DNA of 64,000 bases from Nitrospinota bacterium (GTDB lineage: Bacteria > Nitrospinota_A > UBA7883 > JACRGQ01): assembly GCA_016200345.1 (NCBI GenBank), contig JACQEX010000030.1, positions 6,242-70,241 on the forward strand, in the 5' to 3' direction. Positions 18,672 through 39,914 of this stretch are shown one piece after another. The notes under the pieces are model-generated. The model did no database searches and was not told where the DNA came from. It was given only the letters and a program-made list of their open reading frames with translations. The position numbers and the translations under genes were made by a program. The stretch's first letter is position 1. Each line of letters opens with the position of its first letter.

Positions 18672-18674
18672 CTC

Positions 18675-22617: not shown

Positions 22618-22664
22618 TCGCGCCTCCCTATTCTTGTGCCGTTCATAAAATCAAACCACCCTTG

Positions 22665-23816
22665 TTAAATGTCAAAAAATTTCTTCTTCAAGACGTCGCG
22701 CAACGGGAACGAGGCCAGGACTTTAACTATTTTTTTGCTCGCCCCCGGCCCGCCGTACGGGTTGACGACCTTCCTCAAAACTTTTGAGAACCCCGGCGAA
22801 TATAATTTTTCAAACGCCGCTGTGATTGACGCCTCGGACGGGTCGCAGTCAATCACGCTGTCGGCCCTCACCCTCCCCTTTTGCCTGTCGCCTATGTTGA
22901 TGGCGCCGATTTTAACGGAAGGCGCCTCGGTGAGGCCGCTCGAGCTGTTGCCCACGACGGCATCCACGTATCTTAGGGCGCTTAGGTATCGCAACTGGCC
23001 TAGAGAGTCGTGGGCGCACGCCTTGTCGCCGTTGCGCGCCACATAATCGTCAATCATCCGGTTGATAACCCTGCCTTCCATGTCGGCGTTGGCCTTGGTG
23101 AATATAATTTTTGTCTCTTTTAACCGGTCAATAACGTTCAATAGGGATTGAAACTGCGCCTTCGCGGACTGTTTTTCCAACGTCACGGGATGGAACGTAA
23201 CCAAAATATTTTTGGGCCCCAGCCTAAGGCCGACGGCGCGCTCAAATTTTTCCTTGGACAAAATTGGAAGTTTTTGGATGTTGTCGAGGCCCGGCGTCCC
23301 CGTTTTAAACACTCTTCGAGGATCCTCGCCAAGCTGAACAACGCGGTTTTTGTACTCCTCCGTCGCGACAAAATGCAAATGGCTCATCTTTGTTACGGAG
23401 TGCCGAATCGCCTCGTCAAACGCCCCCTCCGTGGATTCCCCGCCGTGGATGTGGGCGATCGGAATTCTTGCGACCATCGCAGCGCTTGCGGCGCTGAAAA
23501 TTTCGAATCGGTCGCCCAACACGACCACGATGTCCGGCCTTAGCTCCTCGAAGGCCTCCGCGAAGGATATTTGCGCGAGTCCCATCGCCTTTGAAATTCC
23601 AATCTGGGAGTCCGACGACAAAAGCATCTCAATTTTTTTATCAATGTCGAAATCTTTCTCGACCTCCCTATAAGTCAGCCCAAACTCCGGCGAGAGGTGC
23701 ATCCCCGTCGCAATAATCTGAAGTTTCAGCCCGCGAGTTTTTTCAATTTCTTTCATCACCCAAAAAAGATGCCCGTACTCGGCCCGGGTTCCGGTGACAA
23801 CGCAAATCTTTCTCAA
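22665..23816 (-). CDS. neuC: UDP/GDP-N-acetylglucosamine 2-epimerase (hydrolysing), NeuC/LegG family
   Basis: KICVVTGTRAEYG...HIHGGE...HPVT motifs of hydrolysing 2-epimerases. Confidence 0.85.
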   Translation of the reverse strand: MRKICVVTGTRAEYGHLFWVMKEIEKTRGLKLQIIATGMHLSPEFGLTYREVEKDFDIDKKIEMLLSSDSQIGISKAMGLAQISFAEAFEELRPDIVVVLGDRFEIFSAASAAMVARIPIAHIHGGESTEGAFDEAIRHSVTKMSHLHFVATEEYKNRVVQLGEDPRRVFKTGTPGLDNIQKLPILSKEKFERAVGLRLGPKNILVTFHPVTLEKQSAKAQFQSLLNVIDRLKETKIIFTKANADMEGRVINRMIDDYVARNGDKACAHDSLGQLRYLSALRYVDAVVGNSSSGLTEAPSVKIGAINIGDRQKGRVRADSVIDCDPSEASITAAFEKLYSPGFSKVLRKVVNPYGGPGASKKIVKVLASFPLRDVLKKKFFDI

Positions 23817-24808
23817 ATTAGCTCGTCCGTATTATAGTCTTTTTTGGCGACCTGTCCCAAAATCTCGTTCCACCTCATGGGGTTTATCCCCCCGCCGGGA
23901 CGCTTCACGGTTATATTTTCCGTCGTAAACGTTTCGCCGGCCTTTACGCCCCTTGCCGCGACTATGCTTTTGCGCGCAATGGAAATATTTTTAATCTCGC
24001 TCGGGGCGGGCTTTTTTATTCCGTCTCCCACGGCCTTTTCCACGTTTCTAATCGCCCTCACCATTTCCTTTAGTTCGTCCGGCTCCAAACTTGCCTTGTG
24101 GTCCGGCCCTTCCATTTTCCTGTCGAGCGTGAAGTGTTTTTCAATCACGCTTGCTCCCATAGCAACGGCGGCTATGGCCGCGTCTATGCCCAGCGTGTGG
24201 TCCGAGTAACCAACCCTCACGCCGAAGGCGTCTTTAATGGTCTGCATGGCGCGGAGATTGACGTCCTCCATCGGGCATGGATATTCGGTGGTGGCGTGCA
24301 AAACGGTTATTTTTTCCAGCGGAGTGCCCGCCTTTGTGAGCACCTCCAAAGCGTCCTTGATTTCCCCGAGATCCGCCATTCCGGTCGAAATTATCACCTC
24401 TTTGCGCAACGCGCCGATTTTCCGCAGATACGGAAGATTGGTAATTTCGCCGCTTGGTATCTTAAAAATATTCAGTCCCATTCCGCTCAACAAATCCACG
24501 CTGTCCAGATCGAACGGCGTCGAGAGAAACATAATCCCTTTCTTGGAACAGACGTCCATCAGCGTTCGGTGGGCCGCCTCGTTAAGCTCTAGTCTTTTTA
24601 TCATTTCGTACTGCGATTCGGCCGAGTCGGTGGTCTTTTTTTGGTACTCCGCCTTCTGCGCCCCCTTGCCGACGACCTTGTCCGCCTTGAAAGTCTGGAA
24701 CTTCACCGCGTCGGCCCCGGCTGAGACGGCAACGTCAACCAGCTTTTCGGCCAGCGCGATATCCCCGTTATGGTTTACGCCGGCCTCCGCGATTATAAAA
24801 ACACCCAC
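23813..24808 (-). CDS. neuB: N-acetylneuraminate (nonulosonate) synthase, NeuB family
   Basis: IIAEAGVNHNGD...KFQTF...GYSDHT motifs plus a C-terminal SAF domain. Overlaps neuC by 4 nt. Confidence 0.85.
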   Translation of the reverse strand: MGVFIIAEAGVNHNGDIALAEKLVDVAVSAGADAVKFQTFKADKVVGKGAQKAEYQKKTTDSAESQYEMIKRLELNEAAHRTLMDVCSKKGIMFLSTPFDLDSVDLLSGMGLNIFKIPSGEITNLPYLRKIGALRKEVIISTGMADLGEIKDALEVLTKAGTPLEKITVLHATTEYPCPMEDVNLRAMQTIKDAFGVRVGYSDHTLGIDAAIAAVAMGASVIEKHFTLDRKMEGPDHKASLEPDELKEMVRAIRNVEKAVGDGIKKPAPSEIKNISIARKSIVAARGVKAGETFTTENITVKRPGGGINPMRWNEILGQVAKKDYNTDELI

Positions 24809-24816
24809 GATGAAAC

Positions 24817-25572
24817 CTATTTCCTCTTAAAGCAAACGAGCCTTTGCGGCCCGATTCCGGAGCCCTGCAACACGTCGTCCGATTCCGCGAGGAGCCGCAT
24901 TTTCTCGTCGAAATCAAAGGCGTTTTCGCCCATCACAAACGGGGCTACGCATCGCGTTAAATAGAAGTAGGTCGAGAAATCCCTGGTCTCGACCACGGAA
25001 AAATCCCCGCTCATCAGCCCGAGCACCTTGTCGAAGTCCATATACGTGTTGTGATACGGCTCCACAAGCGGCGGCAGGCCGGCCTTGACCCTGTGCGAGT
25101 TCACATTTTCCAGCCCGCTCCGGTAGCATTCCAAGAGGCAAAAAATACCGCCCGGCTCGATCGCCCCGGCGATTTTTTTCAGGCACTTCGACTGAATCGC
25201 CCAGTCGCCCAGGTTGATGACAAATCTTTTGGTCACCACCGCGTCATAAGTCCCGAAAACGTCGCCCGAAATCAAATCAAGTTTCTGGAATTTTAATGTG
25301 TCGCCTTGAAGTTTGGACGCCCTAGACAACATTTCGCTCGAATAATCAAACCCTACGGTTTTTTTTGCTAACTTTGAGTATTGTTGCGTGTCGAATCCGT
25401 CGCCGCACCCAAAATCGGCCAGGCTGGACCACTCCCGTCCGGCGGCGTGTTTTTTAAGGGCGGAGGTTATCGAATTAATCTCGATGCTTCGAAGGTTTGC
25501 GTCCTTTAAGGAGACAACCTGCGGATTCTCCCAATGCTCCTTAGTGACCTCTAATTTTTTTGAAGTGTCCAT
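24817..25572 (-). CDS. Class I SAM-dependent methyltransferase
   Basis: LADFGCGDG motif I. Start taken at the internal ATG (MDTSKK), which gives minimal overlap with the upstream DegT gene. Confidence 0.7.
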   Translation of the reverse strand: MDTSKKLEVTKEHWENPQVVSLKDANLRSIEINSITSALKKHAAGREWSSLADFGCGDGFDTQQYSKLAKKTVGFDYSSEMLSRASKLQGDTLKFQKLDLISGDVFGTYDAVVTKRFVINLGDWAIQSKCLKKIAGAIEPGGIFCLLECYRSGLENVNSHRVKAGLPPLVEPYHNTYMDFDKVLGLMSGDFSVVETRDFSTYFYLTRCVAPFVMGENAFDFDEKMRLLAESDDVLQGSGIGPQRLVCFKRK

Positions 25573-25594
25573 TTCCCCTCTATAATTTGACGTG

Positions 25595-26752
25595 TTACCA
25601 GGAAACAATCGCGCTACTTGGAATGTTTACGACCCTATCCTCAAGCCATTTTGCGTCCGACAAATCGGTCGTCTGGCAATCTTTAAACATCGCAAGCTCG
25701 TTCATCAGCCGCCACGCCGGGCGCGTCATTACGCCCGCGTTGTTTGTCTCCCTCAAAAACTGGTCCCGCGCCCCCCTGTCCTTTAAGACGACGGCGTTCA
25801 GCCAAAAATTCGAGGCGGAGTTCGGCGGTTCCTTGACGAAGGCCATGGATGACCCGGCGAAAAACTCCTCGTATTTGCGGGCGATTTTTCTTTTGCTCTC
25901 CAAAAAGCGCGGAAGATTTTCCAACTGCGCGCATCCAAGCGCGGCGTTTATGTTTGGCAGGCGATAGTTATATCCAATTTCATCGTGGACAAACTCGTAC
26001 TGGTGCGGAACCTTCGCCGTCGTCGTTATGTGCTTGGCCCGTTTAGACAGCGCCTCGTCGTCGGTTAACACCATCCCCCCGCCGCCGGTCGTGATAGTTT
26101 TGTTTCCGTTAAAGCTCAGGACGCCCATTCTGCCAAACGTCCCGGTGTGTCTTCCCTTAAAAAAACTTCCAAGGCTTTCCGCGGCATCCTCCACCAGCGG
26201 GACGCCGAACTCGTCGCAGATTTTTGCTATTTCGTCAATCCTACACGGATGGCCGAAGGTGTGCATCGGAACCGCCGCGCCGATTTTTCGCCCCGTCGCC
26301 TTGTTAAAACAACCGCCATTTTTTCTCGAAGTCTCCTTGGATAAAAAATCTTTCAGACTTTTCGGGCTCATCCCGAGGGTGTCTCTTTCAACGTCAACGA
26401 AGACCGGCCTCGCGCCGCAATAACTTATTGCGTTGCAGGTCGCCACGAACGACAGCGGCTGGGTCAGCACCTCGTCGTCGTTTTTAACGCCGGCCAGCCT
26501 AAGCGCGACGTGCAGGGCCGCCGTGCCGTTTACGGTGGCCACGGCGTATTTGGCCCCGGTGTACTCCGACATCATCTTCTCAAAACGATCCACGTACTTG
26601 CCAACGCTTGAAACAAACGTGGTGTCTATGCAGTCCGCGACATACGCCTTCTCGTTGCCCACGAATTTTGGCTCGTGCAACGAAATAAACTCCGTCGTGC
26701 CGTAAACGGCTCGGACGAAGTCCACCGCGTCCTTGTACGATTTTTCAATCAC
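25595..26752 (-). CDS. DegT/DnrJ/EryC1/StrS-family sugar aminotransferase (LegC/PseC-like)
   Basis: GTAALHVAL...DEV...SFNGNK (PLP-lysine)...GGGG pattern of the family. Confidence 0.85.
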   Translation of the reverse strand: MIEKSYKDAVDFVRAVYGTTEFISLHEPKFVGNEKAYVADCIDTTFVSSVGKYVDRFEKMMSEYTGAKYAVATVNGTAALHVALRLAGVKNDDEVLTQPLSFVATCNAISYCGARPVFVDVERDTLGMSPKSLKDFLSKETSRKNGGCFNKATGRKIGAAVPMHTFGHPCRIDEIAKICDEFGVPLVEDAAESLGSFFKGRHTGTFGRMGVLSFNGNKTITTGGGGMVLTDDEALSKRAKHITTTAKVPHQYEFVHDEIGYNYRLPNINAALGCAQLENLPRFLESKRKIARKYEEFFAGSSMAFVKEPPNSASNFWLNAVVLKDRGARDQFLRETNNAGVMTRPAWRLMNELAMFKDCQTTDLSDAKWLEDRVVNIPSSAIVSW

Positions 26753-26865
26753 CGTGTTTTTCCATATTCATTTTTTTTGAAGGGCGGGTACCGCCAGCGC
26801 CAGCCGCGTCCGCGCGACCACCGGTAAAATCACCGGTGGTTCCGCGACGGAGGGGCGCGAAAGTC

Positions 26866-27567
26866 TTAAGGTTTTCTGATGAAGGCCGGAACGTGACAGG
26901 ATGTCTTCTCAATCCTTAATTTTTTCCCCTTAACAAAGTCATCAATCGCCTGGGTGCCGCCCGCTATGTAGTTGTAGTCGTCCAATACTATGACGCCGTT
27001 TGGAACCACCCTGTCGTACAGCATCTCAAGCGCGAAGGCGGTAGGCTCCTTCACGTCCATGTCCAGATGAAGATAGGCTATTTTAGTCTCCGGATTTTTT
27101 GCCAAGTACGAGGGAAGGGTCTCGAACACGTTCCCCTTGACCAGAAAAATATTCTTGAAATCTTTCTTGGCGAGGATTGACTTCAGTTCGTCCAGCGAGA
27201 GCCCGTCTCCGCTGTCTTTTGCGAAGTAATCAATAAAATCCAGGTCTTTTTTCAATTTTATGTTTTTATCGGGAAATTTGCCGAAGGTGTCGAAACCGAC
27301 AATCTTGCGCGAATAGTCGTTCTCCAAATAATTTCTAAAACCCGCGAGGCGAAGCAACGACGTGCCCTTAAAAACCCCCAGCTCCAAAACATGCCCCGGA
27401 AGCCCGACTATGCTTTTATACAGCTCGTAGTGGGCGAGCATCTTGTTTAGCCTTGTTTGGTGCGCAAACCAGGAAAACCCGTTTTCAAAATCCCAAAATT
27501 TGTTGCTTGAGAGCCCCCGGACGGTCAAATTTTTTCCCAATAACGTGCTAGAGCTAACCTTTTTCAT
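26866..27567 (-). CDS. TylF/MycF-family SAM-dependent O-methyltransferase
   Basis: GVFKGTS...KGNVFETLP...LHLDMD motifs typical of the macrocin O-methyltransferase family. Confidence 0.7.
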   Translation of the reverse strand: MKKVSSSTLLGKNLTVRGLSSNKFWDFENGFSWFAHQTRLNKMLAHYELYKSIVGLPGHVLELGVFKGTSLLRLAGFRNYLENDYSRKIVGFDTFGKFPDKNIKLKKDLDFIDYFAKDSGDGLSLDELKSILAKKDFKNIFLVKGNVFETLPSYLAKNPETKIAYLHLDMDVKEPTAFALEMLYDRVVPNGVIVLDDYNYIAGGTQAIDDFVKGKKLRIEKTSCHVPAFIRKP

Positions 27568-27635
27568 TCTAATCCCTTATTTTTTTGAGCCAAAAACGAG
27601 TATCTTCCCCACCGCCGGTTTTAGCAACCTGACTT

Positions 27636-28445
27636 TTACCATGCGGACAATCCGCCGTCAACCATCAACACCTGCCCGGTGATGTAAGACGCCGCGTCTG
27701 TGCAAAGAAACAGTATCGGCGCCGCAATTTGGTCCGGGCTGGCCATTTTGTTTAACGGAACCAGCTTATTATACTTTTCCACAAACACAGGGTTTTGGTT
27801 GTCGAACACTCCGCCCGGACACACCGCGTTTACCCTGATGTTATGTTTGGCGTAATAGGTTGCGAGGTACCTTGAAAAATTAACTATCCCCCCCTTTATA
27901 AGCGAATAGGGGGCGGTCATGGTCATTGCGGTGCCCTCGTAAACCGAGAAATTAGGCCCCAAAACGCCGTAATGCGAGCCGATGTTAATCAGCACCCCGC
28001 TTTGCCTTTTTTTCATCTCCTCCAATGCCTTCTGGCAACATAAGAAATAACCGTTCATATGCATGTCCACGTTTTTTCTCATGTAGTCCATGTCTATGTC
28101 CTCGAACTTTTTGCCCCAGTCCTTCGTCCTTGGGTAGGCGTTGTTTATCCAGACGTCTATTTTCCCGAATTTTTTGACGATTTCAGCGACTGCGTTTGAA
28201 ACCGATTCGTCCGAGGTGATGTCTATTTCCGCAAGCTCCGCCTTGAATCCGGCCCCGGTTATTTTGTCCTTCAGCGCCGTTCCCCTGGCCTTGTCGTTTT
28301 CCGCGATGACCACGGTCGCGCCAGCCTCCGAAAGTGCGCGGCAAATCTCCGATCCGATGAGCCCCGCCCCGCCCGTTACGACGGCGACTTTGTCATGGAG
28401 GCTAAATTTTTCCGGAAAAATCATGTTTCTGTTCTCCTTATTCAT
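27636..28445 (-). CDS. SDR-family oxidoreductase
   Basis: VAVVTGGAGLIG cofactor motif, NNA, YSLIK (YxxxK). The start may be the internal M8 (MIFPEKF). Confidence 0.75.
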   Translation of the reverse strand: MNKENRNMIFPEKFSLHDKVAVVTGGAGLIGSEICRALSEAGATVVIAENDKARGTALKDKITGAGFKAELAEIDITSDESVSNAVAEIVKKFGKIDVWINNAYPRTKDWGKKFEDIDMDYMRKNVDMHMNGYFLCCQKALEEMKKRQSGVLINIGSHYGVLGPNFSVYEGTAMTMTAPYSLIKGGIVNFSRYLATYYAKHNIRVNAVCPGGVFDNQNPVFVEKYNKLVPLNKMASPDQIAAPILFLCTDAASYITGQVLMVDGGLSAW

Positions 28446-28477
28446 GCCGAGAATCCACCCGGTCGGTTGCCGTTAGA

Positions 28478-29572
28478 TTAAATAAGAGCGTCGTCCGGGC
28501 AGTCGCCAAGCTGAACCTGTCCGGACAAATACATTCCTGCCTGCCTGTTGTATTCGATGCACCGGCAGTTAGCGCAGACCCCGGCGGCGTAATTGCCGTT
28601 CAAGGCGAGGATGACTTCCCTATGGCGCGGCGAGTTCCAAACGTCCTTAAAGCGCGCGTTGTTAAGGTTTCCTATGCAATACCTTTCGTTTCCGATGTGC
28701 GGCTGGCAAAGGTACACCCCGCCGTCGTAATTTATCCAGGCCGTGGCCCTTGTCATTATGGAGGCGCATGAGTCCGGCGGCGGCTCGATTCCGATTCTAT
28801 AATCCTTGGCCGCGTAATGGTGCAGGCCACGGTTCAAAATGGAGCGCACGTTTGTGGTTTTTGGGTCGAAAATATCAATGTTCCCCTCCAAGTCGGCGCG
28901 AATTTGCGCCGCCTCGGCCTCGGAAAACTCCAGCCCCTTTTTCTCGTAGTCTATGGCAGGGATAAAAATCACGTAGTCAAAACCGGAAGCCATGGCGTTT
29001 TTGTAGACGTCCGCCACCTCGCGGTGGTTCACGCGGTTTATGACGCACCGCGCGCCGACGACGACGTTTGAGCCGTTCCCCTTGACCATGTTTGGAAGCT
29101 GAAACTGTTTTTTGAACTGGTCGCTTCCGGTTATGGCCTTGTAATGCTCCTCGTTTGTCGAGTAAATGGAAACGGCTATGTAGTTAAAGCGCCTCAACAA
29201 CGGGACGTCGGCGTCTTTTATGGCGATTCCGTTGGTGACAAGGGCGACCTCGACCCCGTTGTCCAGCAGTTTACCGGCGTATTTATCCCAGTTTTTCACC
29301 ATCGTCGGCTCTCCCCCGCCGGCCAAATAGGCGCTTTTTACGCCAAGCGACAACAGGTCGTCAATGGTTGATTCAATCTGCTCGTCGGAGACCCGGAGGT
29401 ATTTCTTTCTTCGATTGCCGTAGGAACAATGGACGCAGTCGTAATTACATGCGGAGGTCCAGTGGAACTCGACCGACACCGGCCCGAGAGAGAGCGGATC
29501 CGCCCCCTTGCGCCGTTCAAAGTGGGGCACGAATTTTTTTGCCGAAAGCAACGTCTCCAGGTTGTATTTCAT
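28478..29572 (-). CDS. Radical SAM protein (non-B12, Cys-rich C-terminus)
   Basis: CNYDCVHC motif and a C-terminal CANCRC cluster. Start set at the internal ATG (MKYNLE) to avoid overlapping the upstream gene. Confidence 0.7.
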   Translation of the reverse strand: MKYNLETLLSAKKFVPHFERRKGADPLSLGPVSVEFHWTSACNYDCVHCSYGNRRKKYLRVSDEQIESTIDDLLSLGVKSAYLAGGGEPTMVKNWDKYAGKLLDNGVEVALVTNGIAIKDADVPLLRRFNYIAVSIYSTNEEHYKAITGSDQFKKQFQLPNMVKGNGSNVVVGARCVINRVNHREVADVYKNAMASGFDYVIFIPAIDYEKKGLEFSEAEAAQIRADLEGNIDIFDPKTTNVRSILNRGLHHYAAKDYRIGIEPPPDSCASIMTRATAWINYDGGVYLCQPHIGNERYCIGNLNNARFKDVWNSPRHREVILALNGNYAAGVCANCRCIEYNRQAGMYLSGQVQLGDCPDDALI

Positions 29573-29597
29573 TTTGTCAGATATTTCCGAAAGCCGC

Positions 29598-30266
29598 CTA
29601 AAACGACATCTCCATGACGCGGCCCACGACGTCCAGCTGTTTTTCATGGTCAAAAGAATTGTTCTCCGCCGTCCATTCGACAAACGCCGGTTCGCACACC
29701 AAAACCTTGTCGAACTCCAGATTTTTTATGTCGGGATATTTGAACACGGCCGTCCCGCCGGGGGAAACCGTGCTTTCGCCGTCGCCTACGAGCCTCCCGA
29801 CAAGGACAAGCCCCTCGGAGCTGGTGATGTTGAGCGCGGCGATGTCCGCCAGCTCGTTGCTCCCGGCCACCGCAAGTTTTTGCCACCCCCTGCTTTTGCA
29901 AAGCTCCAGCTGGCTCTCCACCACTTTTTGGGCGACCTTATAAGTTCGCAGGGTGTTGCCCAAATATCTTGCGGTGAGCCTGCCTTTCTCGGCGAACCCC
30001 TCCGGCGTCATGTAATAAAGCCACCTCTTTGCGCTAACCTGTCGCGCCTTAATCCACCCCTTAGCCATAACCTTTCGCATGAACGAGTGGGCAAGGCCCG
30101 CCGCTATTCCCGTAAACGCCGTTATTTTTTTTTCGGAGATGTGCGGAAACTTTTCCACCAGGCTGAAAATGTGCATTACCACGGCGTCGTCCGCAGACGC
30201 CTTGACCGACGAATATGGGGAAACCGGCGAGAGATCCGGACTTTCCAAGGTTTGTTTGTTTTTCAT
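29598..30266 (-). CDS. Hypothetical protein with N-terminal winged-helix-like domain (putative regulator)
   Basis: MHIFSLVEKFPHISEKKITAFTGIAAGLAHSFMRKVMAKGWIKAR resembles a wHTH. Unassigned C-terminal domain. Confidence 0.35.
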   Translation of the reverse strand: MKNKQTLESPDLSPVSPYSSVKASADDAVVMHIFSLVEKFPHISEKKITAFTGIAAGLAHSFMRKVMAKGWIKARQVSAKRWLYYMTPEGFAEKGRLTARYLGNTLRTYKVAQKVVESQLELCKSRGWQKLAVAGSNELADIAALNITSSEGLVLVGRLVGDGESTVSPGGTAVFKYPDIKNLEFDKVLVCEPAFVEWTAENNSFDHEKQLDVVGRVMEMSF

Positions 30267-30350
30267 AAGAATTTGGGCGCGCCTACGGCCTCACTGGTTG
30301 TCAAGCTCTTCACGCAATCCATAAAATTAAAAAGGCAAAACTAAAAAGGG

Positions 30351-30890
30351 TTAGTACGGCTCCAATAAATCCGATTCAAGCTCCGTGACCAAAGCCCTTT
30401 TAAATAAATCCAATGAGACGATAAACCGCCCCGTCTTGGGGCTTATGCGAACAAATTGCCCGTACGCACCGGCCAGCGGCCCCGCCACAACGTGCACGCG
30501 CTCCCCCGCGACCATCGGGGTGTACGGCAGTTCGTAAACGGGCGCCGGGGAACAGGCCATCTTTTCCAGGCGCAACACCTGGTCGTTTGGGATGACGGCA
30601 GGACTGCCGTCTTGACGGACAAACCCCAAAACGCCTTTGTGAGAAAACAGCATCTTGGTTTCTACGGCCTCGATGTCGGCTTCAACAAACACGTAGTTGC
30701 TCAACAGCGGTTTTATTACGGCAACCTTCTGTCCGTTCCTTCTTTTCCACACGTCCCTTGCCGGAACGCTGACTTTTAAGCCGAAATGATTTTTGAAAAA
30801 TTCCGAGACGCTAAATTCATTTTGATGCCTAACCCTGAGCGCAAACCACCCGCAATCAACGGTGTAGGGCGAAACCAGCGCATTGCTCAT
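30351..30890 (-). CDS. NusG-family paralog (RfaH/UpxY/LoaP-like operon-specific antiterminator)
   Basis: 179 aa. NGN domain (WFALRVRHQNE...) and a C-terminal KOW (GERVHVVAGPLAGAYGQF). Shorter than housekeeping NusG and sits at the 5' end of the polysaccharide operon. Confidence 0.75.
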   Translation of the reverse strand: MSNALVSPYTVDCGWFALRVRHQNEFSVSEFFKNHFGLKVSVPARDVWKRRNGQKVAVIKPLLSNYVFVEADIEAVETKMLFSHKGVLGFVRQDGSPAVIPNDQVLRLEKMACSPAPVYELPYTPMVAGERVHVVAGPLAGAYGQFVRISPKTGRFIVSLDLFKRALVTELESDLLEPY

Positions 30891-31000
30891 AATGTGAGCA
30901 TTGTACCCCTAAAGCGGTGGAATTGGCAAATTTTATTTTGTTGTGCGACTGAAAAATGACCTTTTCAGCTATATTCATATTTATGCGGAATTAGCAATAA

Positions 31001-31981
31001 TTATGTAATGGGACAGGCGTCGTATCGGGCGGAACCATAACGATTAAAATGTTCCGTCAAAGAGTCGAGAAACGGCTCGTGTAACATCCTAGCCTCTCTT
31101 AGCGTCGGCAGGTCGCACCTGCCGTCCAGCAATATCCCCTCCACAACCGAACTCGTCGTTTCGCTTTGCAAATAGTCGAACCTTGCGTTGTGACGAACCC
31201 AAACCCATTTGCCTACGCGCGTGGCGATTTCATAGGTGTTGTCGGCCTCGCGGATTTTTAGGGCCACTTCCGCCGACGTTATCGTTATCTCCACCGGCGA
31301 GATAACTTCCCCGCAATAAAATGAAAAACCGTTCGCCCCCAAACTCCCGGAAAGCTCGCCGGAAACCTCCTTGAATCCGGGTCTTTTTGACTCAAGAATT
31401 TTCTTGTCAAGACCGCCGTTTGAAACAACCAAACCCTCGCAATCGGTCAGGTAGGCAAGCAGGTCGAGAAAATGAAGTCCGTTGCACGCCATACCCCAGC
31501 TACCGCCCGCGACTTTCAACTCAATCGGCCCCGTCCCTTTTAGCGCAGTTTTGATTTTTTTGTAGACTGGATAAAGCCTTCTTGGATGATTGACCCAGGC
31601 TCGAATATTTTTGCGCTCCAGCAGTTTGCCGACGTCCTCAAAATCGGATTTTTTTTGAAATACCACTTTTTCCAAAATAAGATTTTTAACGCCCTTCTTC
31701 TCCGCCAATTCCCTCACCAAATTAGAACGAACGTCGGCGTTGGTGGCGACTATAGCGAGGTCCAACTCGTCAGACAGACCCGAGACTCCGTCTCGGACCA
31801 CCAATTCCATGGCCTCGCTTCCGACAATCTCTTTAAACCTGGACAGGGCCGTATTTATAGCCCCTTCAGAGCGCCCCACCACCTCTATGCTTGCACCAAT
31901 CCCAAGTCCGGCCAACCCCTGCAAGTATCTGCTTCCGATTTGGCCGGGGCCGATTAACGCGATTTTGAACGTCTTGGTCAT
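31001..31981 (-). CDS. Gfo/Idh/MocA-family oxidoreductase
   Basis: KIALIGPGQIGSRY Rossmann N-terminus and an EKV motif. First gene downstream of the palindrome array. Confidence 0.75.
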   Translation of the reverse strand: MTKTFKIALIGPGQIGSRYLQGLAGLGIGASIEVVGRSEGAINTALSRFKEIVGSEAMELVVRDGVSGLSDELDLAIVATNADVRSNLVRELAEKKGVKNLILEKVVFQKKSDFEDVGKLLERKNIRAWVNHPRRLYPVYKKIKTALKGTGPIELKVAGGSWGMACNGLHFLDLLAYLTDCEGLVVSNGGLDKKILESKRPGFKEVSGELSGSLGANGFSFYCGEVISPVEITITSAEVALKIREADNTYEIATRVGKWVWVRHNARFDYLQSETTSSVVEGILLDGRCDLPTLREARMLHEPFLDSLTEHFNRYGSARYDACPIT

Positions 31982-32008
31982 ATTTTAGGTATTGGTAGTG
32001 GCTTAGCA

Positions 32009-32096
32009 TTACTCACAATATGAGCAACTTTTTACTCATATTGTGAGTAACTATTTGCTCATCATATGAGCAATGTTTTACTCATGCAATGAGCAA
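32009..32096. promoter_or_regulatory. Array of four 19-bp palindromic operator-like sites (TTRCTCA-N5-TGAGYAA) at exact 23-bp spacing
   Basis: Sites start at 32009, 32032, 32055 and 32078. Copies 2 and 3 are perfect palindromes. The array ends 28 bp upstream of the 31981 start codon in the operon leader. Confidence 0.5.
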
Positions 32097-32141
32097 CAAG
32101 CCGCAACGATGCAATTTGTCCTTTATAATCAAATAGATTAA

Positions 32142-34886
32142 TCAGGGCGCGACTAATTCCACAAAGGCAATTCTGCCTGGGGAATTTTTTAAAATCTTGA
32201 TTTTCCCCACGAAGGCCATATGCTCTATCCAACTGCTAAACCGCATCAATTTTTTATGCAACGACCCGTTGGGATCCTTCTCGAGAGTCCCCGTATTCAC
32301 GTCAATGATGATGTATCGAAAACCGGCGGACTTTAAAATACGGTATATCTCCTCGTCGCTTTCCCCGGCGCTCATGCAACTAAAATTGTCCAGCATCTGG
32401 TCGTCATAGAGACGTCTGTCGTTTTTGACGATAAAATAGCTTATAAAGGTGCCGATTCTATACACGTAGTTTTTCTCGGTCAGGGTTTCCGGGTGGTCGT
32501 TGACCTCCTTTGCTATGGACGAATAATCAGGCGCGAGGTTTTCGATGGTTTTGGCCTCGTCAAAGAGGCCGAATGCAAAGCCCGTCATGGACTTGTTGCC
32601 AAAGGTCTGGTTGCGAAAGGCCACAAAGGTTGTTAGCGACACAAAAATCAACACCCAGCTCACGAAGCGCACCGGGGCGGGGCTGTTTGCAATCAAGTAA
32701 TCCATAATCAGGGCAAACAGCAAAAAGCCGCCGATTCCGTACCATATTATGCCGTCCGAAACCAGCATCCAAAAAACCCACGACGCGGAGCCTAAAAAGA
32801 CGGCCAGGGACAAGAGGGGGTTGCGAATTTTAACCGAGGCGTACCAATAGACGGCAAGCAACATCGCGACCATCACCCCAATTTCCGCGGCAAACCCGGG
32901 GGAAAGGCTTATGGAGTTCAAATTGCCAAAAGGGTTTAACTTTATTCGCAAGGCCCAGAATATCCAAAATGAAAACCATACGAACACCGTCGCCCCAGCG
33001 GCGATGGTCTCGCCGCGAAACCAGATTGCCATCGCCTCTTTTTGCCGTTCGATCCACACCACCGGCCCAGCGGCGATGGTCCCGCCGCGAAACCAGATTG
33101 CCAGCCCTATCAACGCCGGCAGAATGGCAAGAAAAGTGTAGCCAATGTCTACCCAAAAACCGTGGGTGGTCGTGTTCATCGTGTCTTTCCAAGGCAAAGC
33201 GATTAATTTGTCCAGCCCCGAATCGTATCCCGCATACCTACCCGCCTCCTCCTTCAAGCCGGTCGGACTGACGCATTCCTCCGCCGTTTTGCCCGATGTG
33301 TGCAAATCCGGGCTTAAAGAATTGGCGTTTGCCCCCTTCAACATGGCACTCAAATGAAAGTTTTTTGCCTGAAACCCATTGGAAACGGCCCAAGGCGCAA
33401 AGGTCAGGGCGGACAGGCCGACAAAAATCCCAAAACGCAGGCCAAATTCCAAAACCCTGGACTTGGCGCGCGCCATGGCAACAGCCCCGATGACGACGGC
33501 TAACAGGGCGCAGTAGCGGGAAAGCGTCGCGATTTGCGCATCGTCCAAAATGCCGTCCAGCCGAAGGGTGCCGCTTTTCAAGGTGACAAAAATGAACGCC
33601 AGAAAAAACGCCGCGGCTCCGGTGCGTCCAAGGTAAATTCCGGCAATGGCGACAGCCATGGGAAAAATTAAAAACGTGGCGGAAAATTTTATTCCAAAGG
33701 AGAAACCGGCAAACAGAGAGGCCAAAACGAGCCATTCAAGCTCGATCTTTTTCGCCCTGGTCGCCTCAACGTCGGGGGTCGCCCCGACCAAAGGCGCTTC
33801 TTTTGAAACCCTTTCGCGCCATTCAAAAAAGCAATAGACTGAAAGGGCCAGAAAAAAGAGCAACGTCGGGTCGGTCTTCATGTCGGTGGCCGACTGCCAC
33901 ATAAGCATCGGGGTCAGGTAGAGCACCGTGGCCGCGGTAATTCCCACCTTGTCAGAGAAAAAGCGACGGCCGATCGCCACGATGGCCAAAACGGCGCATA
34001 CGCCGCCGAAGTACGAGAGATACAGCGCGATGGTCGCGTTGTCGAAAAGCAGAAAACCAAGCGAAATGATGGGGAAATAGTTAAAGCTCCTTCCCCCGCT
34101 CAGAAGAAAATGGTATTGCGAAATAAGCTTGGGAATATTTATGTACACACCCATGTCGTCCCATCCCAGCGGTATCGGGCGAATCAGGTCGAAGAAATTC
34201 AGCGCAAAGACGAAAGTAAGGAACAAGAACAGGTATTTGCGCGGGGAAAACACCCTACTTCTAATTTGAATTTTATGGGAGACAAGCCGGCCCCACCAGG
34301 CGAAGGCCGTTCTCCACCGCCAGACCAAGACCGCGATGACGGCGAACCACACCACCGGGGTGTAAAGCAGTTGCGCGTGGCCGACCACGAACATCCCGGC
34401 TACGGTCGTCATCATCCCGGTTCCAATCGAAAACAGCGAGTCTTCCAACATGGCGTCGAAAGCGAGCTTTCCAAGCACGGCCTTTCCCTGCACGTAGAAG
34501 AAGGTTGCGAAAAACAGCAGGCCGAGGGTCATGGCGGTAAACCAAAACATCACGTTTAATTCCGCGGTAAAGACGTCCACCTTGTCCGCGAGGCCGCTTT
34601 TAGCGAGATAATACGAGGAAATCCACACCACGAGCGCCCCGAAAAAAACCAACACCCAAAGCGGCGTGACGTTAAACTTCCACTCGTCCTTGTCGCGATA
34701 GAAATACTGAACCAAATCAAGGGCAAAAAACAGCCCGACGCACATCGCCAGCATGCTCGTCGTCGGCTTAAACTCCTTCAGATTTGCCATGTGCTCCGGA
34801 TGGGAGATGAAATACTGCTGTATGACGTAGCCGGCCCAACTAAGGGCCAACAGGGAAAAAATTACCGAGAAAATCTTTCTTTGCAT
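32142..34886 (-). CDS. Large polytopic membrane protein, GT-C-like glycosyltransferase fold (tentative)
   Basis: 914 aa, more than 20 predicted TM segments, large loop regions. Contains an internal 24-aa tandem duplication. Confidence 0.55.
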   Translation of the reverse strand: MQRKIFSVIFSLLALSWAGYVIQQYFISHPEHMANLKEFKPTTSMLAMCVGLFFALDLVQYFYRDKDEWKFNVTPLWVLVFFGALVVWISSYYLAKSGLADKVDVFTAELNVMFWFTAMTLGLLFFATFFYVQGKAVLGKLAFDAMLEDSLFSIGTGMMTTVAGMFVVGHAQLLYTPVVWFAVIAVLVWRWRTAFAWWGRLVSHKIQIRSRVFSPRKYLFLFLTFVFALNFFDLIRPIPLGWDDMGVYINIPKLISQYHFLLSGGRSFNYFPIISLGFLLFDNATIALYLSYFGGVCAVLAIVAIGRRFFSDKVGITAATVLYLTPMLMWQSATDMKTDPTLLFFLALSVYCFFEWRERVSKEAPLVGATPDVEATRAKKIELEWLVLASLFAGFSFGIKFSATFLIFPMAVAIAGIYLGRTGAAAFFLAFIFVTLKSGTLRLDGILDDAQIATLSRYCALLAVVIGAVAMARAKSRVLEFGLRFGIFVGLSALTFAPWAVSNGFQAKNFHLSAMLKGANANSLSPDLHTSGKTAEECVSPTGLKEEAGRYAGYDSGLDKLIALPWKDTMNTTTHGFWVDIGYTFLAILPALIGLAIWFRGGTIAAGPVVWIERQKEAMAIWFRGETIAAGATVFVWFSFWIFWALRIKLNPFGNLNSISLSPGFAAEIGVMVAMLLAVYWYASVKIRNPLLSLAVFLGSASWVFWMLVSDGIIWYGIGGFLLFALIMDYLIANSPAPVRFVSWVLIFVSLTTFVAFRNQTFGNKSMTGFAFGLFDEAKTIENLAPDYSSIAKEVNDHPETLTEKNYVYRIGTFISYFIVKNDRRLYDDQMLDNFSCMSAGESDEEIYRILKSAGFRYIIIDVNTGTLEKDPNGSLHKKLMRFSSWIEHMAFVGKIKILKNSPGRIAFVELVAP

Positions 34887-34977
34887 CGCGTAAGCTTACC
34901 GCACTTTACGCGAAGAAAAAAGGGAGCGAGAAAAAAAAATCGGCGTTGACTTGGGGCCGCGAACATGGCATCATGAT

Positions 34978-34996
34978 GATAATGATTATCATTATC
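34978..34996. promoter_or_regulatory. Fur box (GATAATGATTATCATTATC)
   Basis: 18/19 match to the classical Fur consensus GATAATGATAATCATTATC and perfectly palindromic. Lies in the divergent region between the 32142..34886 (-) gene and the fur-family gene, with a TTGACT -35-like hexamer at 34946. Confidence 0.65.
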
Positions 34997-35024
34997 CAGA
35001 GAAGACGTGACCGATAGCCAGCCG

Positions 35025-35438
35025 ATGGCGGCTTTTAGGCTCCACATCGCCAAAAAGGGGCTTCGCCACACCAAGCAGAGAGAGGAAATCCTTTCAGCCC
35101 TTTTCTCGTCCAAAAAACACGTCACGGCGGAGGAGCTTTTCGATATCCTCAGGTCAAAGGTGGCCGGCATCGGCTATGCCACGGTGCAAAGAAACCTGAA
35201 CCTTTTGCGGGAGTGCGGACTGGCCGAGGAGGTAAAAATTGGCAACCAAAAGGCCCGCTACGAGCCGAAACGCGGTAAGGAACACCACGACCACCTCATA
35301 TGCCTTAAGTGCGGAAGGTTCATAGAGGTAAACGACCCGAGGCTGGAAAAACTACAGGACGGGCTGGCGAAGGCAAACGGCTTTGCGCCGCTAAGACACA
35401 AACTGGAAATATACGGAACCTGCGCCAAGTGCGCATAA
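35025..35438 (+). CDS. Fur-family transcriptional regulator (Fur/Zur/PerR)
   Basis: HTKQREEIL...HHDHLICLKCGRFIEV...CAKC: DNA-binding helix, metal-site HHxH and two CxxC pairs. Alternative GTG start at 35007. Confidence 0.8.
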   Translation: MAAFRLHIAKKGLRHTKQREEILSALFSSKKHVTAEELFDILRSKVAGIGYATVQRNLNLLRECGLAEEVKIGNQKARYEPKRGKEHHDHLICLKCGRFIEVNDPRLEKLQDGLAKANGFAPLRHKLEIYGTCAKCA

Positions 35439-35445
35439 AAGAGGG

Positions 35446-36537
35446 GTGGGAATGAGTTATTCGAATCTGCTGTTACTGGGCGCAATCGCCGGCTTTACAA
35501 TTTTCCTCGGCCTTCCCGTGGCGATGCTGACGACACGCCCGAAATTCCGCGCGTTCATGACCGCCCTTTCCGCAGGCGTTCTCATTTTCCTGCTGGTCGA
35601 GATATCCAACAAGTCGTTCGAGATTGTCGAGGAGGCGGTGAAAAGTTATTTTGTCGGCCAGTCCGGCCCGGCGCCAACCGCGCTTTGCCTTATTTTCTTC
35701 CTTGGGTTCACCGCCGGAATGTTCGGTCTGACCTTCTTTGAGGAAAAATTTGTCGGAACCGCCAAGGACTCCCCGGAAAAAAACAGCTCCAAATCCCTGT
35801 CAATGATGATAGCCATCGGCATAGGCCTGCACAATTTCGGCGAAGGACTTGCCATCGGCCAGGAATACGTCAGCGGCGCGATATCCCTCGCATACCTCCT
35901 TATAGCTGGCTTTGCGCTCCATAACGCGACCGAGGGATTCGGCATCGCGGCGCCGCTAAGGATGGAAAAGGTGGATTGGAAATTTTTGGGCCTTGCCGGC
36001 CTTGTTGGCGGCGGCCCGACGTTCGTTGGCGTTCTGGTCGGCTCCGTTTACTACTCGCGCCAGTTGGAACTGCTGGCTCTTTCCCTCGCCGCCGGTAGCA
36101 TCCTTTACGTGGTCGGGGAGCTGTTGCACCTCGGAAAAGTGCACGGACACCATAGAACGGTCATGGTCGGACTCCTGACCGGATTTTTCATCTCGTTTGC
36201 CTCCGACGCGTTCATAGAGGTCGGCACGGCGGTCACCGCCAATAAAAAGGTTCCGTCAAAGATTTATCAAGTCGAGGCCTCTGAATTCAAATTCACCCCT
36301 TCGCATTTTGAGGCGGTCCAGGGGGAGACTCTGCGGTTTGAGATTACTAACAAGGGGACGGAGAACCACGAGTTTGAAATGCCGGATTTAAAAACGGAGG
36401 TCGTGCTCACTCCGGGCGCCAACGCCGTCGTTACCGTGCCCGACCTGAAAGTTGGCGAGTACCTTATTAGGTGCGACCTGCCCGGACACCTTGAGCACGG
36501 GATGAAGGGCGAGTTGGTGGTCAAACCTAAAATTTAA
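35446..36537 (+). CDS. ZIP-family metal permease fused to a C-terminal cupredoxin-like domain
   Basis: ZIP signature helices (GLHNFGEGLAIG, HNATEGF) over residues 1-250. The C-terminal ~100 aa (TPSHFEAV...YLIRCDLPGHLEHGM) show a cupredoxin Cys-His...His-Met-like pattern. Confidence 0.65.
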   Translation: MGMSYSNLLLLGAIAGFTIFLGLPVAMLTTRPKFRAFMTALSAGVLIFLLVEISNKSFEIVEEAVKSYFVGQSGPAPTALCLIFFLGFTAGMFGLTFFEEKFVGTAKDSPEKNSSKSLSMMIAIGIGLHNFGEGLAIGQEYVSGAISLAYLLIAGFALHNATEGFGIAAPLRMEKVDWKFLGLAGLVGGGPTFVGVLVGSVYYSRQLELLALSLAAGSILYVVGELLHLGKVHGHHRTVMVGLLTGFFISFASDAFIEVGTAVTANKKVPSKIYQVEASEFKFTPSHFEAVQGETLRFEITNKGTENHEFEMPDLKTEVVLTPGANAVVTVPDLKVGEYLIRCDLPGHLEHGMKGELVVKPKI

Positions 36538-37429: not shown

Positions 37430-38815
37430 ATGAGAGTTTGTTTAATCAATCCGCCGTGGAATCTTAAGAAAGGGAGCATTTGGACTCAAATAAGGAGTTC
37501 CATGCCCGCGCTGGGTCTTTTGTACCTTGCCGGATACCTTGAAAGAGAAAATATTTCCTCCGACATCGTGGATTTTCAGGCCACCCTTGTCCCGTGGGAT
37601 AAAATTGACGATAAAATCAAAACTCTTGAATACGATTTCTTCGGAATAACGGCCACGACCCCTTTGGTCGTAAACGCTTATAAAATTGCCGACATTATTA
37701 AAAAACACCATCCACTGGCAAAGGTGGTTTTGGGCGGCGTTCATCCCACGGCCCTGCCCGACGAGGCTCTTTCGTACCCGAGCGTTGATTATGTCGTTAG
37801 GGGGGATGGCGAGGAGCCGTTTCTTAATTTGGTAAAGGGAACTCCGCCGGACCAAATTTCGGGCATATCCTATAGAGACTCCGGCCAGGTTAAACACATC
37901 GGGGAGCCGGGTTACGTAAAGAACCTTGATTCGCTACCGACTCCGGCGTTTCATAAAATTGATTTCTCCCTCTATCATCCGGCGGTCGGGGCCTATAAGA
38001 GGTTGCCGGCGATAAACATGACCGCCACAAGGGGTTGCCCCGGAAAATGCACGTTTTGTAATTCCGCATCCACGAAATTACGGCACCGATCGGCGGAACA
38101 TATTTTTGCCGAGATGGAAATCCTATCAAAAAAATACGGGATGCGCGAAATATGTTTTTATGACGACACCTTCACGGTTTACCCGGAAAACATCAAACGG
38201 CTCTGCGAGCTTATAATCGCCAACAAGCTGGACATAACATGGTCGTGTTTTGCGCGCACAGACTGCGTTACCGCCGAAATGCTGGGGATGATGAAGAAGG
38301 CCGGTTGCCACCAGGTGATGTACGGAATCGAGGCCTACAACGAAAAAATTTTAAAAAATATCAAGAAGACCATTTCATATGAGAAAAACGCCAACGCCAT
38401 CAAGATGGCCCAAAAGGTCGGCATAACCGTGCGTTGCACGTTCATGTTTGGAAACCCGGGGGAGACGATTGAAACAATGGACGAAACGATTCAATACGCG
38501 ATTAAACTAAACCCGGACATCGCCCTCTTCAACATCACCATCCCGTTCCCCGGCACAGAAATGTACGAATGGGCGAAGTCAAAAGGATACCTGACGACGT
38601 ATGACTGGATGGAGTACGACCTGAGCGAGCCGGTGATGATTCTACCGGGACTCACGAGGGACTCCATGAAGAAAAAGTATAAGGAGGCGTTCTTCAAATA
38701 TTACCTGCGCCCCCTGTACATTTTGAGACAGATGAGACGGTTCGCCTCGCCAAGCGAGCTACCGCTCCTAATCGGTGCGCTAAAAAGCATGTTTCGATTC
38801 TTCAGGTCGGCCTGA
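37430..38815 (+). CDS. B12-binding (class B) radical SAM protein
   Basis: B12-binding N-terminus (RVCLINPPW...VVLGGVHPT) followed by CPGKCTFC. Confidence 0.8.
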   Translation: MRVCLINPPWNLKKGSIWTQIRSSMPALGLLYLAGYLERENISSDIVDFQATLVPWDKIDDKIKTLEYDFFGITATTPLVVNAYKIADIIKKHHPLAKVVLGGVHPTALPDEALSYPSVDYVVRGDGEEPFLNLVKGTPPDQISGISYRDSGQVKHIGEPGYVKNLDSLPTPAFHKIDFSLYHPAVGAYKRLPAINMTATRGCPGKCTFCNSASTKLRHRSAEHIFAEMEILSKKYGMREICFYDDTFTVYPENIKRLCELIIANKLDITWSCFARTDCVTAEMLGMMKKAGCHQVMYGIEAYNEKILKNIKKTISYEKNANAIKMAQKVGITVRCTFMFGNPGETIETMDETIQYAIKLNPDIALFNITIPFPGTEMYEWAKSKGYLTTYDWMEYDLSEPVMILPGLTRDSMKKKYKEAFFKYYLRPLYILRQMRRFASPSELPLLIGALKSMFRFFRSA

Positions 38816-38958
38816 CCGCCTTCGCGCAAACCGTGGCGTTCTTAAATGTTTCGTGTTAGTATCTAGAAAATTTTTGGGCGGATTGTTTTTGACATACAAC
38901 GGCCCCGGACACGACTAAAAAACGCGAATTATAATCAATTATAGGACGGCGATTGCTT

Positions 38959-39651
38959 ATGAAACTTTCGGTGATTGTTCCCTGTTACAACGAAAACAAC
39001 ACCATAGAATCCATAATAGCGGCTATCAAATCGTCCCCCTACCCAAACAAGGAAATTATTATCGTTGACGATTGCTCCAAAGACGGGACAAGGGACAAAC
39101 TTAGGAACGGCATCGAAAAAACCGTGGACAAGGTGATCTACCATGAAATTAACATGGGCAAAGGGGCGGCCTTAAGAACGGGCATTATGGCCGCGACGGG
39201 GGACATCGTGATAATACAGGACGCGGATCTTGAGTACGACCCCAACGAGTATGAACGGGTTGTCGAGCCGATAGTAAAAGGGAAGGCCGACGTGGTTTAC
39301 GGCTCCCGCTTTTTGGGCGGCGACGCCCACCGGGTGGTTTATTTCTGGCACAGGATTGGAAACGGCCTGCTGACCCTTCTTTCAAACATGTTTACAAACC
39401 TGACGCTGACCGACATGGAAACTTGCTACAAGGCCTTCAGACGCGAGGTGATACAGTCAATAAAGATTGAGGAAAATCGCTTCGGTTTCGAGCCTGAAAT
39501 AACGGCAAAAATAGCCAGAAAAAATCTGAGAATTTACGAAGTGGGCATTTCCTATTATGGCCGAACCTACGAAGAGGGAAAGAAAATCGGGTGGAAGGAC
39601 GGCGTCTCGGCCCTGCGATGCATTATCGTCTACAACCTCTGGAGGAGGTAA
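38959..39651 (+). CDS. Family-2 glycosyltransferase (polyprenol-phosphate glycosyltransferase-like)
   Basis: [20 protein letters not shown] motifs of GT2/DPM1-like enzymes. Confidence 0.8.
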
Positions 39652-39667
39652 AATCAAGACCGACGCG

Positions 39668-39910
39668 GTTGTTAGTGTGGCGTCCCAGTATCGGGTTTGC
39701 AATTTGGTGGTAGCGGCGGGCTTTTTTCGGCAACCTCCATCGGGTAGCGGTGATGCACGCTCTGACTTGGGTGGCGGAAGTATTATGGTCGCATACTGCG
39801 GCCTGCCTTGCGCCCTGCGGGCGCAACAACAGGATGAATCCCGTTGCTACCAATTCGTGTTGGTGCAAGCACCGCTTGTGAAGGAGGTACTGGGACACTA
39901 CATTAGCAAC
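39668..39910 (+). repeat. Structured repeat element copy A (~243 bp; terminal inverted repeats; MITE-like or ncRNA)
   Basis: Shares a ~110-nt identical core with copy B at 42882..43117. Termini GTTGTTAGTGTGGCGTCCCAGTA / TACTGGGACACTACATTAGCAAC form an imperfect inverted repeat with G-U-compatible substitutions. Confidence 0.6.
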
Positions 39911-39914
39911 CTTT

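Follow-up and report, generated by a model that had tools for sequence, protein, structure and literature searches.

Specialised NusG paralogs switch on long and costly operons, among them those for capsules, O-antigens, antibiotics and conjugation, and to our knowledge RfaH, some UpxY proteins, PrfaH and, in part, LoaP are the sole cases in which it is known how such a protein finds its operon. The same question is raised by a stretch of 64,000 nucleotides (hereafter the window; contig JACQEX010000030.1 of assembly GCA_016200345.1, positions 6,242 to 70,241) from a Nitrospinota bacterium, a lineage that is a deep-branching, uncultured marine and sediment phylum. Here a gene for a 179-residue NusG-like protein precedes some 28 sugar-biosynthesis genes on the same strand. 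Is this protein a paralog dedicated to the glycan locus, and by which signal could it be recruited? We consider it likely that the protein is a Nitrospinota-specific paralog whose nearest known relatives are the UpxY proteins and that it is encoded by the first, probably leaderless, cistron of a long glycan operon; we propose that it is loaded in cis at a short DNA element after its own gene and reads through the genes that follow. The features concerned are:

30351..30890, minus strand: specialised NusG paralog (NusG_SP), a 179-residue ATG-to-stop open reading frame (ORF) with NGN and KOW domains
30900..30929, minus strand: sigma70-like promoter TTGCCA-18-TACAAT, from a consensus scan (10/12 matches)
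30883..30901, no strand assigned: operator-like palindrome ATGCTCA-CATTA-TGAGCAA, overlapping the predicted transcription start and the ATG (30890..30888)
30278..30306, minus strand: conserved non-coding element GC-TTGACA-ACCAGTGAG-GCCGTAGGC-GCG, between the paralog and partner genes
29598..30266, minus strand: co-conserved partner of 222 residues, modelled with an N-terminal winged helix, then a long helix, then a Rossmann-like domain
982..29573, minus strand: putative operon body of about 28 sugar-biosynthesis genes, from Pfam scans and the ORF map

The ORF fills exactly 30351..30890, and its product was described as an NGN plus KOW protein in the first-pass annotation of the window, which had been made from the sequence without database searches. 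Domain models and structure prediction bear this description out. The Pfam NGN model (PF02357) matches residues 15–108 with 54.2 bits (gathering score 22.2), and the full-length NCBIfam profiles for UpxY, LoaP, RfaH and NusG each cover approximately residues 15–173. The Pfam KOW model gave no report for the protein at E<=0.01; three glycines of the corresponding region (G137, G141 and G144) are invariant across the clade of close relatives described below. The AlphaFold2 (AF2) model, a single prediction that is built on an alignment of 15 homologous sequences and leaves a second fold possible, has a mean pLDDT of 81 and combines an NGN alpha/beta domain with a five-stranded beta-barrel at residues 131–178, equivalent to the KOW domain. 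Foldseek comparison of this model with the PDB returned NusG and RfaH in elongation complexes as top matches, and by sequence the best solved relative is RfaH (E = 1e-9), ahead of the 'NusG-RNA complex' 8f5g, after which comes E. coli NusG. The segment PLLSNYVFVE aligns with PLFPNYLFVE of RfaH, in which the PLxxNYxFVE motif has a role in RNA polymerase binding; the form shared with RfaH is PL(L/F)xNYxFVE. The identical public protein record reads 'hypothetical protein HY280_03250 [Nitrospinae bacterium]'.

The family placement was judged from profile scores and from a tree. Among the NCBIfam profiles UpxY (NF033644) scores best, with 89.8 bits for a cut-off of 100, followed by LoaP (NF033641; 65.0/125) and two RfaH models (TIGR01955, 53.9/144.5; NF006534, 46.1/124), while the housekeeping NusG equivalog (TIGR00922, cut-off 135.7) reaches 45.6 bits with the paralog and 45–59 bits with the members of its clade. 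UpxY is also the best profile for nine of ten other clade members, and LoaP for the tenth, at 68–96 bits and never at the cut-off; of the ten nearest proteins outside the clade, six exceed the UpxY cut-off with 110–136 bits. A profile search of 1.84 billion representative proteins gave 10 clusters (50% identity) above 147 bits, after which the scores fall to 104 bits, and below this value follow thousands of general matches to the NusG superfamily. In a neighbour-joining tree 22 close sequences are monophyletic and stand apart from all else, including E. coli NusG and RfaH; the distance of the paralog is 0.82 to E. coli RfaH and 0.88 to E. coli NusG, and UpxY-type proteins are nearer than NusG. 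The tree is distance-based and comprises 155 proteins together with E. coli NusG and RfaH as its sole authenticated references; since it holds no authenticated UpxY, LoaP or TaA sequences, the placement draws on the profile scores and the distance tree jointly. The phylogenetic placement of the NGN domain that the first-pass annotation had called for was hence obtained with respect to E. coli NusG and RfaH, and the UpxY and LoaP side was judged by profiles. All clade members with source names are Nitrospinota/Nitrospinae, and the clade is rare: the representative genomes of 185,579 species gave a single locus. Judged by these comparisons, the protein is related to the UpxY-type specialised paralogs but divergent, restricted to its lineage and outside any curated subfamily.

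That the protein is instead the housekeeping NusG of its organism in an odd location is hardly credible. Its NGN plus KOW architecture would suit such a role, and one relative (P0015) carries the name NusG in its source; against this stand the equivalog score of 45.6 bits where 135.7 are required, the nearer position of UpxY-type proteins in the tree, and the rarity of the clade, which is the opposite of the expectation for a universal factor. The neighbourhood, known from one contig of a metagenome-assembled genome (MAG), argues in the same direction: the layout in E. coli is secE-nusG-rplK-rplA, and neither secE nor rplK nor rplA was found near the paralog gene by Pfam scans and the ORF map of the window. 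The distinction from housekeeping NusG made in the first-pass annotation is thus upheld.

The comparative set consists of 12 distinct loci, namely the window and 11 loci from metagenomes and MAGs (a scan of genome contigs gave one locus, a scan of metagenomes four); it is small, and some members are close kin (L010 and L012; L004, L005 and L015). In the 11 other loci the identity of the paralog to that of the window is 45–74%, and those with names all belong to Nitrospinota/Nitrospinae. A homologue of the partner (40–69% identity) is the next gene after the paralog in every locus in which this flank is present (11 of the 12 loci). Past the partner follow sugar genes on the same strand whose content is locus-specific, with NeuB-type, GDP-mannose-derived, dTDP-sugar and ABC-transporter sets. 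The sequence upstream of the paralog varies as well and holds unrelated genes, divergent genes, or Wzz/Wzy-type genes. The proposed position of an operon-linked paralog at the head of a glycan locus is therefore seen at variable sugar clusters in 12 loci. A conserved pair that heads hypervariable glycan operons is what is expected of a travelling regulator, and we regard it as the strongest support for an operon-linked specialised paralog.

Promoter geometry is equally constant. All 12 loci share a -35 hexamer, a spacer of 15–18 nt, a -10 hexamer (NANNNT), exactly 9 nt, and the start ATG AGY; the -35 hexamer is TTGACA in seven loci, TTGACT in three, TTGCCA in the window and TTGAAA in L018. From the usual distance between a -10 hexamer and the transcription start, the transcript would begin 0–3 nt before the ATG, and the paralog mRNA is probably leaderless or nearly so. 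The conserved promoter 9 nt before the ATG makes the paralog most likely the first cistron of its transcript. This modifies the first-pass annotation, which had counted the gene as the second of a super-operon: it is third in a run of genes on the same strand, has a promoter-like site of its own and is probably the first cistron.

We note that public gene calls for the paralog (L001 4879, L002 10001, P0012–P0015) begin either too late (175 and 167 residues) or too early (186–207 residues). The conserved Met-Ser-Asn/Asp start sits 9 nt after the -10 hexamer, and these start codons therefore appear to be miscalled. For the partner gene in L001 (5569) and L002 (10549) the public call is extended at the N-terminus across the conserved non-coding element. 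The analysis thus corrects public annotation, in which the paralog is filed as 'hypothetical' or plain NusG and several starts of both genes are miscalled.

Where, then, might the paralog be loaded? The 9 nt from the -10 hexamer to the ATG leave no room for an ops-type site 5' of the paralog gene. Across the loci, the element at 30278..30306 is the sole conserved block in an otherwise unalignable spacer between the paralog and partner genes. Its 12-mer GCCGNAGGCNYG occurs once per locus in 12/12 loci, with TTGACA-N9-GCCGNAGGCNYG as the full form; the pattern TTGACA-N9-GCCGNAGGC has one exact match in the window and one in each of 10 of the 11 other loci, L002 having TTGATA. The element is always on the sense strand and in the same position, ending 5–34 nt before the ATG of the partner, and neither the rest of the 64 kb nor the sequence flanking the related loci yielded a further copy. 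Across the loci the 12-mer reads GCCG(T/G/A)AGGC(G/A/T)(C/T)G. It can form a GCC/GGC stem with a loop of 3 nt and has a pyrimidine-G step at positions 11–12; the window copy GCCGTAGGCGCG (30278..30289) is identical to ops (GGCGGTAGCGTG / GGCGGTAGnnTG) at 8 of 12 positions. By analogy with ops, the element is our best candidate for the loading site of the paralog, a tentative assignment that may well prove mistaken.

The first-pass annotation had proposed to search the sequence at 30891..32008, taken as a leader, for ops-like or hairpin recruitment elements. A candidate of the ops-like kind exists, downstream of the paralog gene and not in a leader, and no RNA hairpin was found: within the element RNAalifold gave only the invariant 3-bp stem, with no covariation, and the single-sequence fold was no better than that of shuffled sequences (z = +0.5). 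A LoaP-type RNA hairpin or riboswitch in the element was rejected on these grounds. An Rfam scan of 29400..35500 gave only two matches, both at chance level. A 2-mismatch match to TTGACA-N9-GCCGNAGGC (TTTAAACGAACCGGCGCCGGAGGC) lies at 619..642 on the minus strand, just past the final gene of the cluster, where it overlaps with a terminator-like hairpin, a weak one, at 617..629 (plus strand); 6.6 such matches are expected by chance, and it is probably a coincidence.

The same element could also be read as a promoter or operator inside the operon that serves the partner and the biosynthesis genes. An alternative sigma factor or the winged-helix partner might then recognise it, and the paralog would be recruited elsewhere or by an undetected RNA signal. 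TTGACA is itself present in 11 of the 12 loci (TTGATA in L002) and is preceded by T-rich sequence in several, and the element ends 5–34 nt before the partner ATG with no evident Shine-Dalgarno sequence in between; GGAGG within the element was rejected as such a sequence, as its spacing is 10–34 nt and the window has GTAGG. However, by inspection the hexamer 16–19 nt after TTGACA is CGCGCC or similar in all loci and in none resembles a -10 hexamer, by which a sigma70 promoter was rejected. By eye the element fits neither sigma54, as GG at -24 is not conserved in L003, L005 and L014, nor sigma28, for which the spacing is wrong. It is also non-palindromic, unlike typical targets of winged-helix dimers, for which a separate palindrome is available. 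We therefore rate the promoter or operator reading as unlikely, with a chance large enough to be taken seriously. A further alternative concerns the paralog itself, which might act mainly in trans on unlinked targets, as RfaH does, or promote pausing or termination, its position at the glycan locus reflecting co-regulation only. Some UpxY proteins enhance pausing at their sites (PMC11685472), NusG itself aids Rho, and with a single copy of the element in 64 kb, targets elsewhere in the genome are possible. Yet the paralog stands at the head of a glycan cluster without exception in 12/12 loci despite the variable downstream genes, and the conserved cis element travels with the paralog gene; this alternative appears improbable.

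Several observations weigh against the cis-loaded, antiterminating paralog that we favour. The protein lies below every curated subfamily cut-off. The HTTT gate-loop motif of RfaH is not kept and ETKM takes its place (by our own mapping from the alignment), and the C-terminal domain is a beta-barrel in the AF2 model, with no sign of the RfaH-type alpha-helical form. Nothing hence points to the kind of autoinhibition that enforces site-specific loading in RfaH, and details of anti-pausing and autoinhibition may differ from RfaH. Two genes on the same strand lie upstream of the paralog, so that read-through from an earlier promoter is possible. The ops-type sites of RfaH, UpxY and PrfaH are located in a 5' leader upstream of the first gene (PMC11685472, PMC11880322). 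Finally, the element contains a perfect TTGACA after a T-rich tract and may be an unconventional promoter or operator for the partner gene.

With these points in mind, the proposed course of events at the locus would be as follows. The paralog would be loaded in cis when RNA polymerase reaches TTGACA-N9-GCCGNAGGCNYG immediately downstream of the gene that encodes it. If ops and opsX are a guide, the part of the element further upstream would be read as duplex DNA, and GCC-NNN-GGC as a small hairpin that the non-template strand forms where it is exposed in a complex paused at the Y-G step. UpxY sites include upstream duplex DNA, and the conserved TTGACA 9 bp upstream of the 12-mer could therefore have such a role. 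The NGN domain would take the place of NusG at the clamp-helix site of RNA polymerase, and the modified polymerase would pass pause and termination signals over the following ~30 kb. The operon would make nonulosonic-acid and heptose-type sugars for a surface glycan, and the winged-helix/Rossmann-like partner would control initiation via the start-site palindrome and, in the window, via four tandem copies of it. The clade thus offers, in 12 loci, a short DNA element of fixed position together with a fixed promoter geometry, and with them a concrete hypothesis of recruitment. Should the element act in this way, loading of the ops type would be older and more widespread than its present examples, and would operate inside an operon and not in the leader only.

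The partner and the palindromes form the second half of the conserved arrangement. The start-site palindrome abuts the -10 hexamer and has the shared core GCTCA-N5-TGAGY; its right arm is also under coding constraint. A pattern search of the 64 kb found 5 palindrome sites in the window where 0.01 are expected. An equivalent start-site palindrome is found with a relaxed pattern in nine related loci, and in L009 and L015 the left arm is further degenerate. The partner matches the NCBIfam model MarR_EPS (TIGR04176) with 50.4 bits (cut-off 88) over residues 27–117 only, its C-terminal Rossmann-like domain falling outside the model, and it has no Pfam match at E<=0.01, UpxZ included. Its AF2 model (pLDDT 75; alignment of 11 database sequences) consists of a winged helix, a long helix and a Rossmann-like alpha/beta domain. 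Foldseek matches this model to MarR-family repressors over the N-terminal part and, weakly, to the Rex family over the whole length (E ~2e-4, TM ~0.3). Modelled as a protein of the dimeric-repressor type, the partner is the obvious candidate for the start-site palindrome, and it is most likely a putative regulator that binds the palindromes, an assignment made by proximity.

Taken further, the arrangement could be a self-contained cassette, in which a leaderless nusG_SP carries its own downstream ops-like site and a Rex-like winged-helix/Rossmann sensor gates the promoter via the start-site palindromes. We regard this extension as speculative and rather doubtful. Were it true, the paralog would be made first from the transcript that it later modifies, which amounts to a built-in delay or a feed-forward, and we know of no control cassette of such a layout for any NusG paralog. 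In that case TTGACA-N9-GCCGNAGGCNYG would also be the first signal of recruitment to be defined for such a paralog beyond Proteobacteria, Bacteroidota and Firmicutes.

A distant relative of the paralog (P0016, 29% identity; L006/L007 10001..10546) lies inside a Wza/Wzi/Wzz-type cluster for capsule export and synthesis. The P0016 locus lacks the winged-helix partner, the palindrome at the start site and the TTGACA-N9-GCCGNAGGC element alike; partner, palindrome and element are hence traits of the Nitrospinota clade and not general traits of glycan-linked NusG paralogs.

How does the locus compare with systems already studied? NusG paralogs that head polysaccharide operons are known from UpxY and the RfaH-like clusters, and the kind is not new. 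Wang et al. 2020 describe RfaH-like clusters CL2–CL8 next to cell-envelope genes, with CL4 beside a helix-turn-helix (HTH) regulator (PMC7593976). From its sequence, the present case appears to depart from the studied ones in four respects: no curated threshold is reached, the companion is a predicted DNA-binding protein and not UpxZ, the transcript is seemingly leaderless, and the ops-like signal follows the paralog gene.

The closest parallel is provided by the UpxY/UpxZ capsule operons of Bacteroides, in which the paralog is likewise first in a polysaccharide operon and is followed by a second regulatory gene and then by variable sugar genes. UpxY is the best profile of the paralog, and the nearest named neighbours exceed its cut-off. 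UpxY sites of ~40 bp combine a non-template hairpin with upstream duplex DNA (PMC11685472); the element described here is similar to the bipartite opsX in that its ~30–35 nt comprise a small hairpin of GC pairs and a part upstream of it. Differences lie in the score, which is under the cut-off (89.8 vs 100; 68–96 in the clade), in the second gene, whose product here is a winged-helix/Rossmann-like DNA-binding protein by its model, and in the phylum, which is Nitrospinota and not Bacteroidota. There is also apparently no 5' leader here: the candidate site follows the paralog gene, and no conserved pause-hairpin RNA was found at the locus.

In the ops element of RfaH, the non-template strand forms a small hairpin that is closed by C3:G8 and from which T6 is flipped out, and the polymerase pauses at U11 before G12 (PMC5995543). 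The paralog shares with RfaH the NGN fold and the PLxxNYxFVE motif, the candidate element has the 8/12 identity to ops, a potential mini-hairpin and the pyrimidine-G end, and its predicted role is the same, namely suppression of polarity in long glycan operons. In contrast to RfaH, which is encoded by a lone gene, the paralog is encoded inside its presumed target operon; its RfaH score is 53.9 bits vs 144.5, its C-terminal domain is a beta-barrel in the AF2 model and not an alpha-hairpin, and HTTT is lost. The ops element has 12 nt, whereas the element here measures about 33 nt with the invariant upstream TTGACA.

LoaP of Bacillus velezensis and Thermoanaerobacter (PMC12691694) is likewise a specialised paralog beside a long biosynthetic operon, and with 65 bits its profile is the second-best match. 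The score is below the cut-off of 125, the target here is a glycan locus and not a polyketide locus, and whereas LoaP is reported to use a hairpin of the leader RNA (PMC12691694), neither conserved RNA structure nor covariation was found at the element. PrfaH/ActX of IncX conjugative plasmids (PMC11880322) is co-transcribed with its target genes, as is presumed for the present paralog. Its ops-like site lies between the promoter and its own gene (PMC11880322), a place for which there is no room here.

The evidence for a long transcript comes from the arrangement of the genes. From 30890 down to 982 about 30 genes follow one another on the same strand with gaps of at most 113 bp. On the minus strand of the operon body the search for intrinsic terminators gave no more matches than shuffled sequence, and none in the gaps was convincing. 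Tight packing without clear terminators fits a single transcript of ~30 kb and is no proof of it. According to Pfam, the body encodes NeuB, a UDP-GlcNAc 2-epimerase, two cytidylyltransferases, DegT-type and class-III aminotransferases and RmlD, as well as GmhA-like and HldE-like proteins, a split transketolase, several methyltransferases and eight radical-SAM enzymes.

Every ORF between 34886 and 982 reads on the minus strand, and upstream of the paralog promoter the run begins with the following features:

32142..34886, minus strand: membrane protein of 914 residues with a weak match to PMT_2 (Pfam, 25.6 bits, cut-off 26.1)
32009..32096, no strand assigned: four tandem palindromes TTRCTCA-N5-TGAGYAA with a period of 23 bp, within the 160-bp spacer that precedes the oxidoreductase gene
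31001..31981, minus strand: GFO/IDH/MocA oxidoreductase of 326 residues (Pfam PF01408, 27.1 bits, cut-off 24, residues 5–132)

The oxidoreductase gene is flanked by intergenic sequences of 110 bp (30891..31000) and 160 bp (31982..32141). The supposed leader at 30891..32008 is therefore mostly coding and cannot be kept as such. A relationship of the oxidoreductase to a GFO-like gene in L002 was considered and rejected, as there is no similarity. The tandem array is not seen in the related loci, which hold only the start-site copy, and no sigma70-like promoter was found in the array spacer (31982..32141). If transcribed, this spacer would fold with -59 kcal/mol (z = -7), with neighbouring copies paired into two long hairpins. 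The array may be an operator array, a roadblock, an insulator or an RNA element. The 914-residue protein contains an internal near-duplicate segment (…AIWFRGGTIAAGPVVW…AIWFRGETIAAGATVF…) and is a possible candidate for the enzyme by which the glycan is transferred.

Radical-SAM enzymes are unusually numerous in the glycan locus. B12-binding members are encoded at 982..2514, 13896..15284 and 16647..18671 and, on the other strand, at 37430..38815, and four SPASM-type enzymes were noted (3817..4902, 7994..9061 and 28478..29683, plus related ones in other loci). These genes sit alongside those for NeuB/NeuC/CMP-transferase, GmhA-like and HldE-like proteins and the split transketolase (982..29683 minus, 37430..42407 plus). 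Only one classical glycosyltransferase was seen, a GT2 enzyme at 38953..39651. The product of the locus may be a nonulosonic or heptose sugar with heavy C-methylation or some other modification.

Beyond the run of minus-strand genes, a near-perfect Fur-box-like sequence (GATAATGATAATCATTATC) lies at ~34978..34996 in the divergent spacer between the gene for the 914-residue protein and a Fur-family gene (35007..35438, plus strand). The latter encodes 143 residues with HHDH and CxxC motifs, as judged by eye, and is followed by a fusion of a ZIP transporter and a cupredoxin (35446..36537, plus strand) and then by a CcmH-like gene. These genes probably form a unit for metal uptake under Zur/Fur control, with no relation to the glycan locus.

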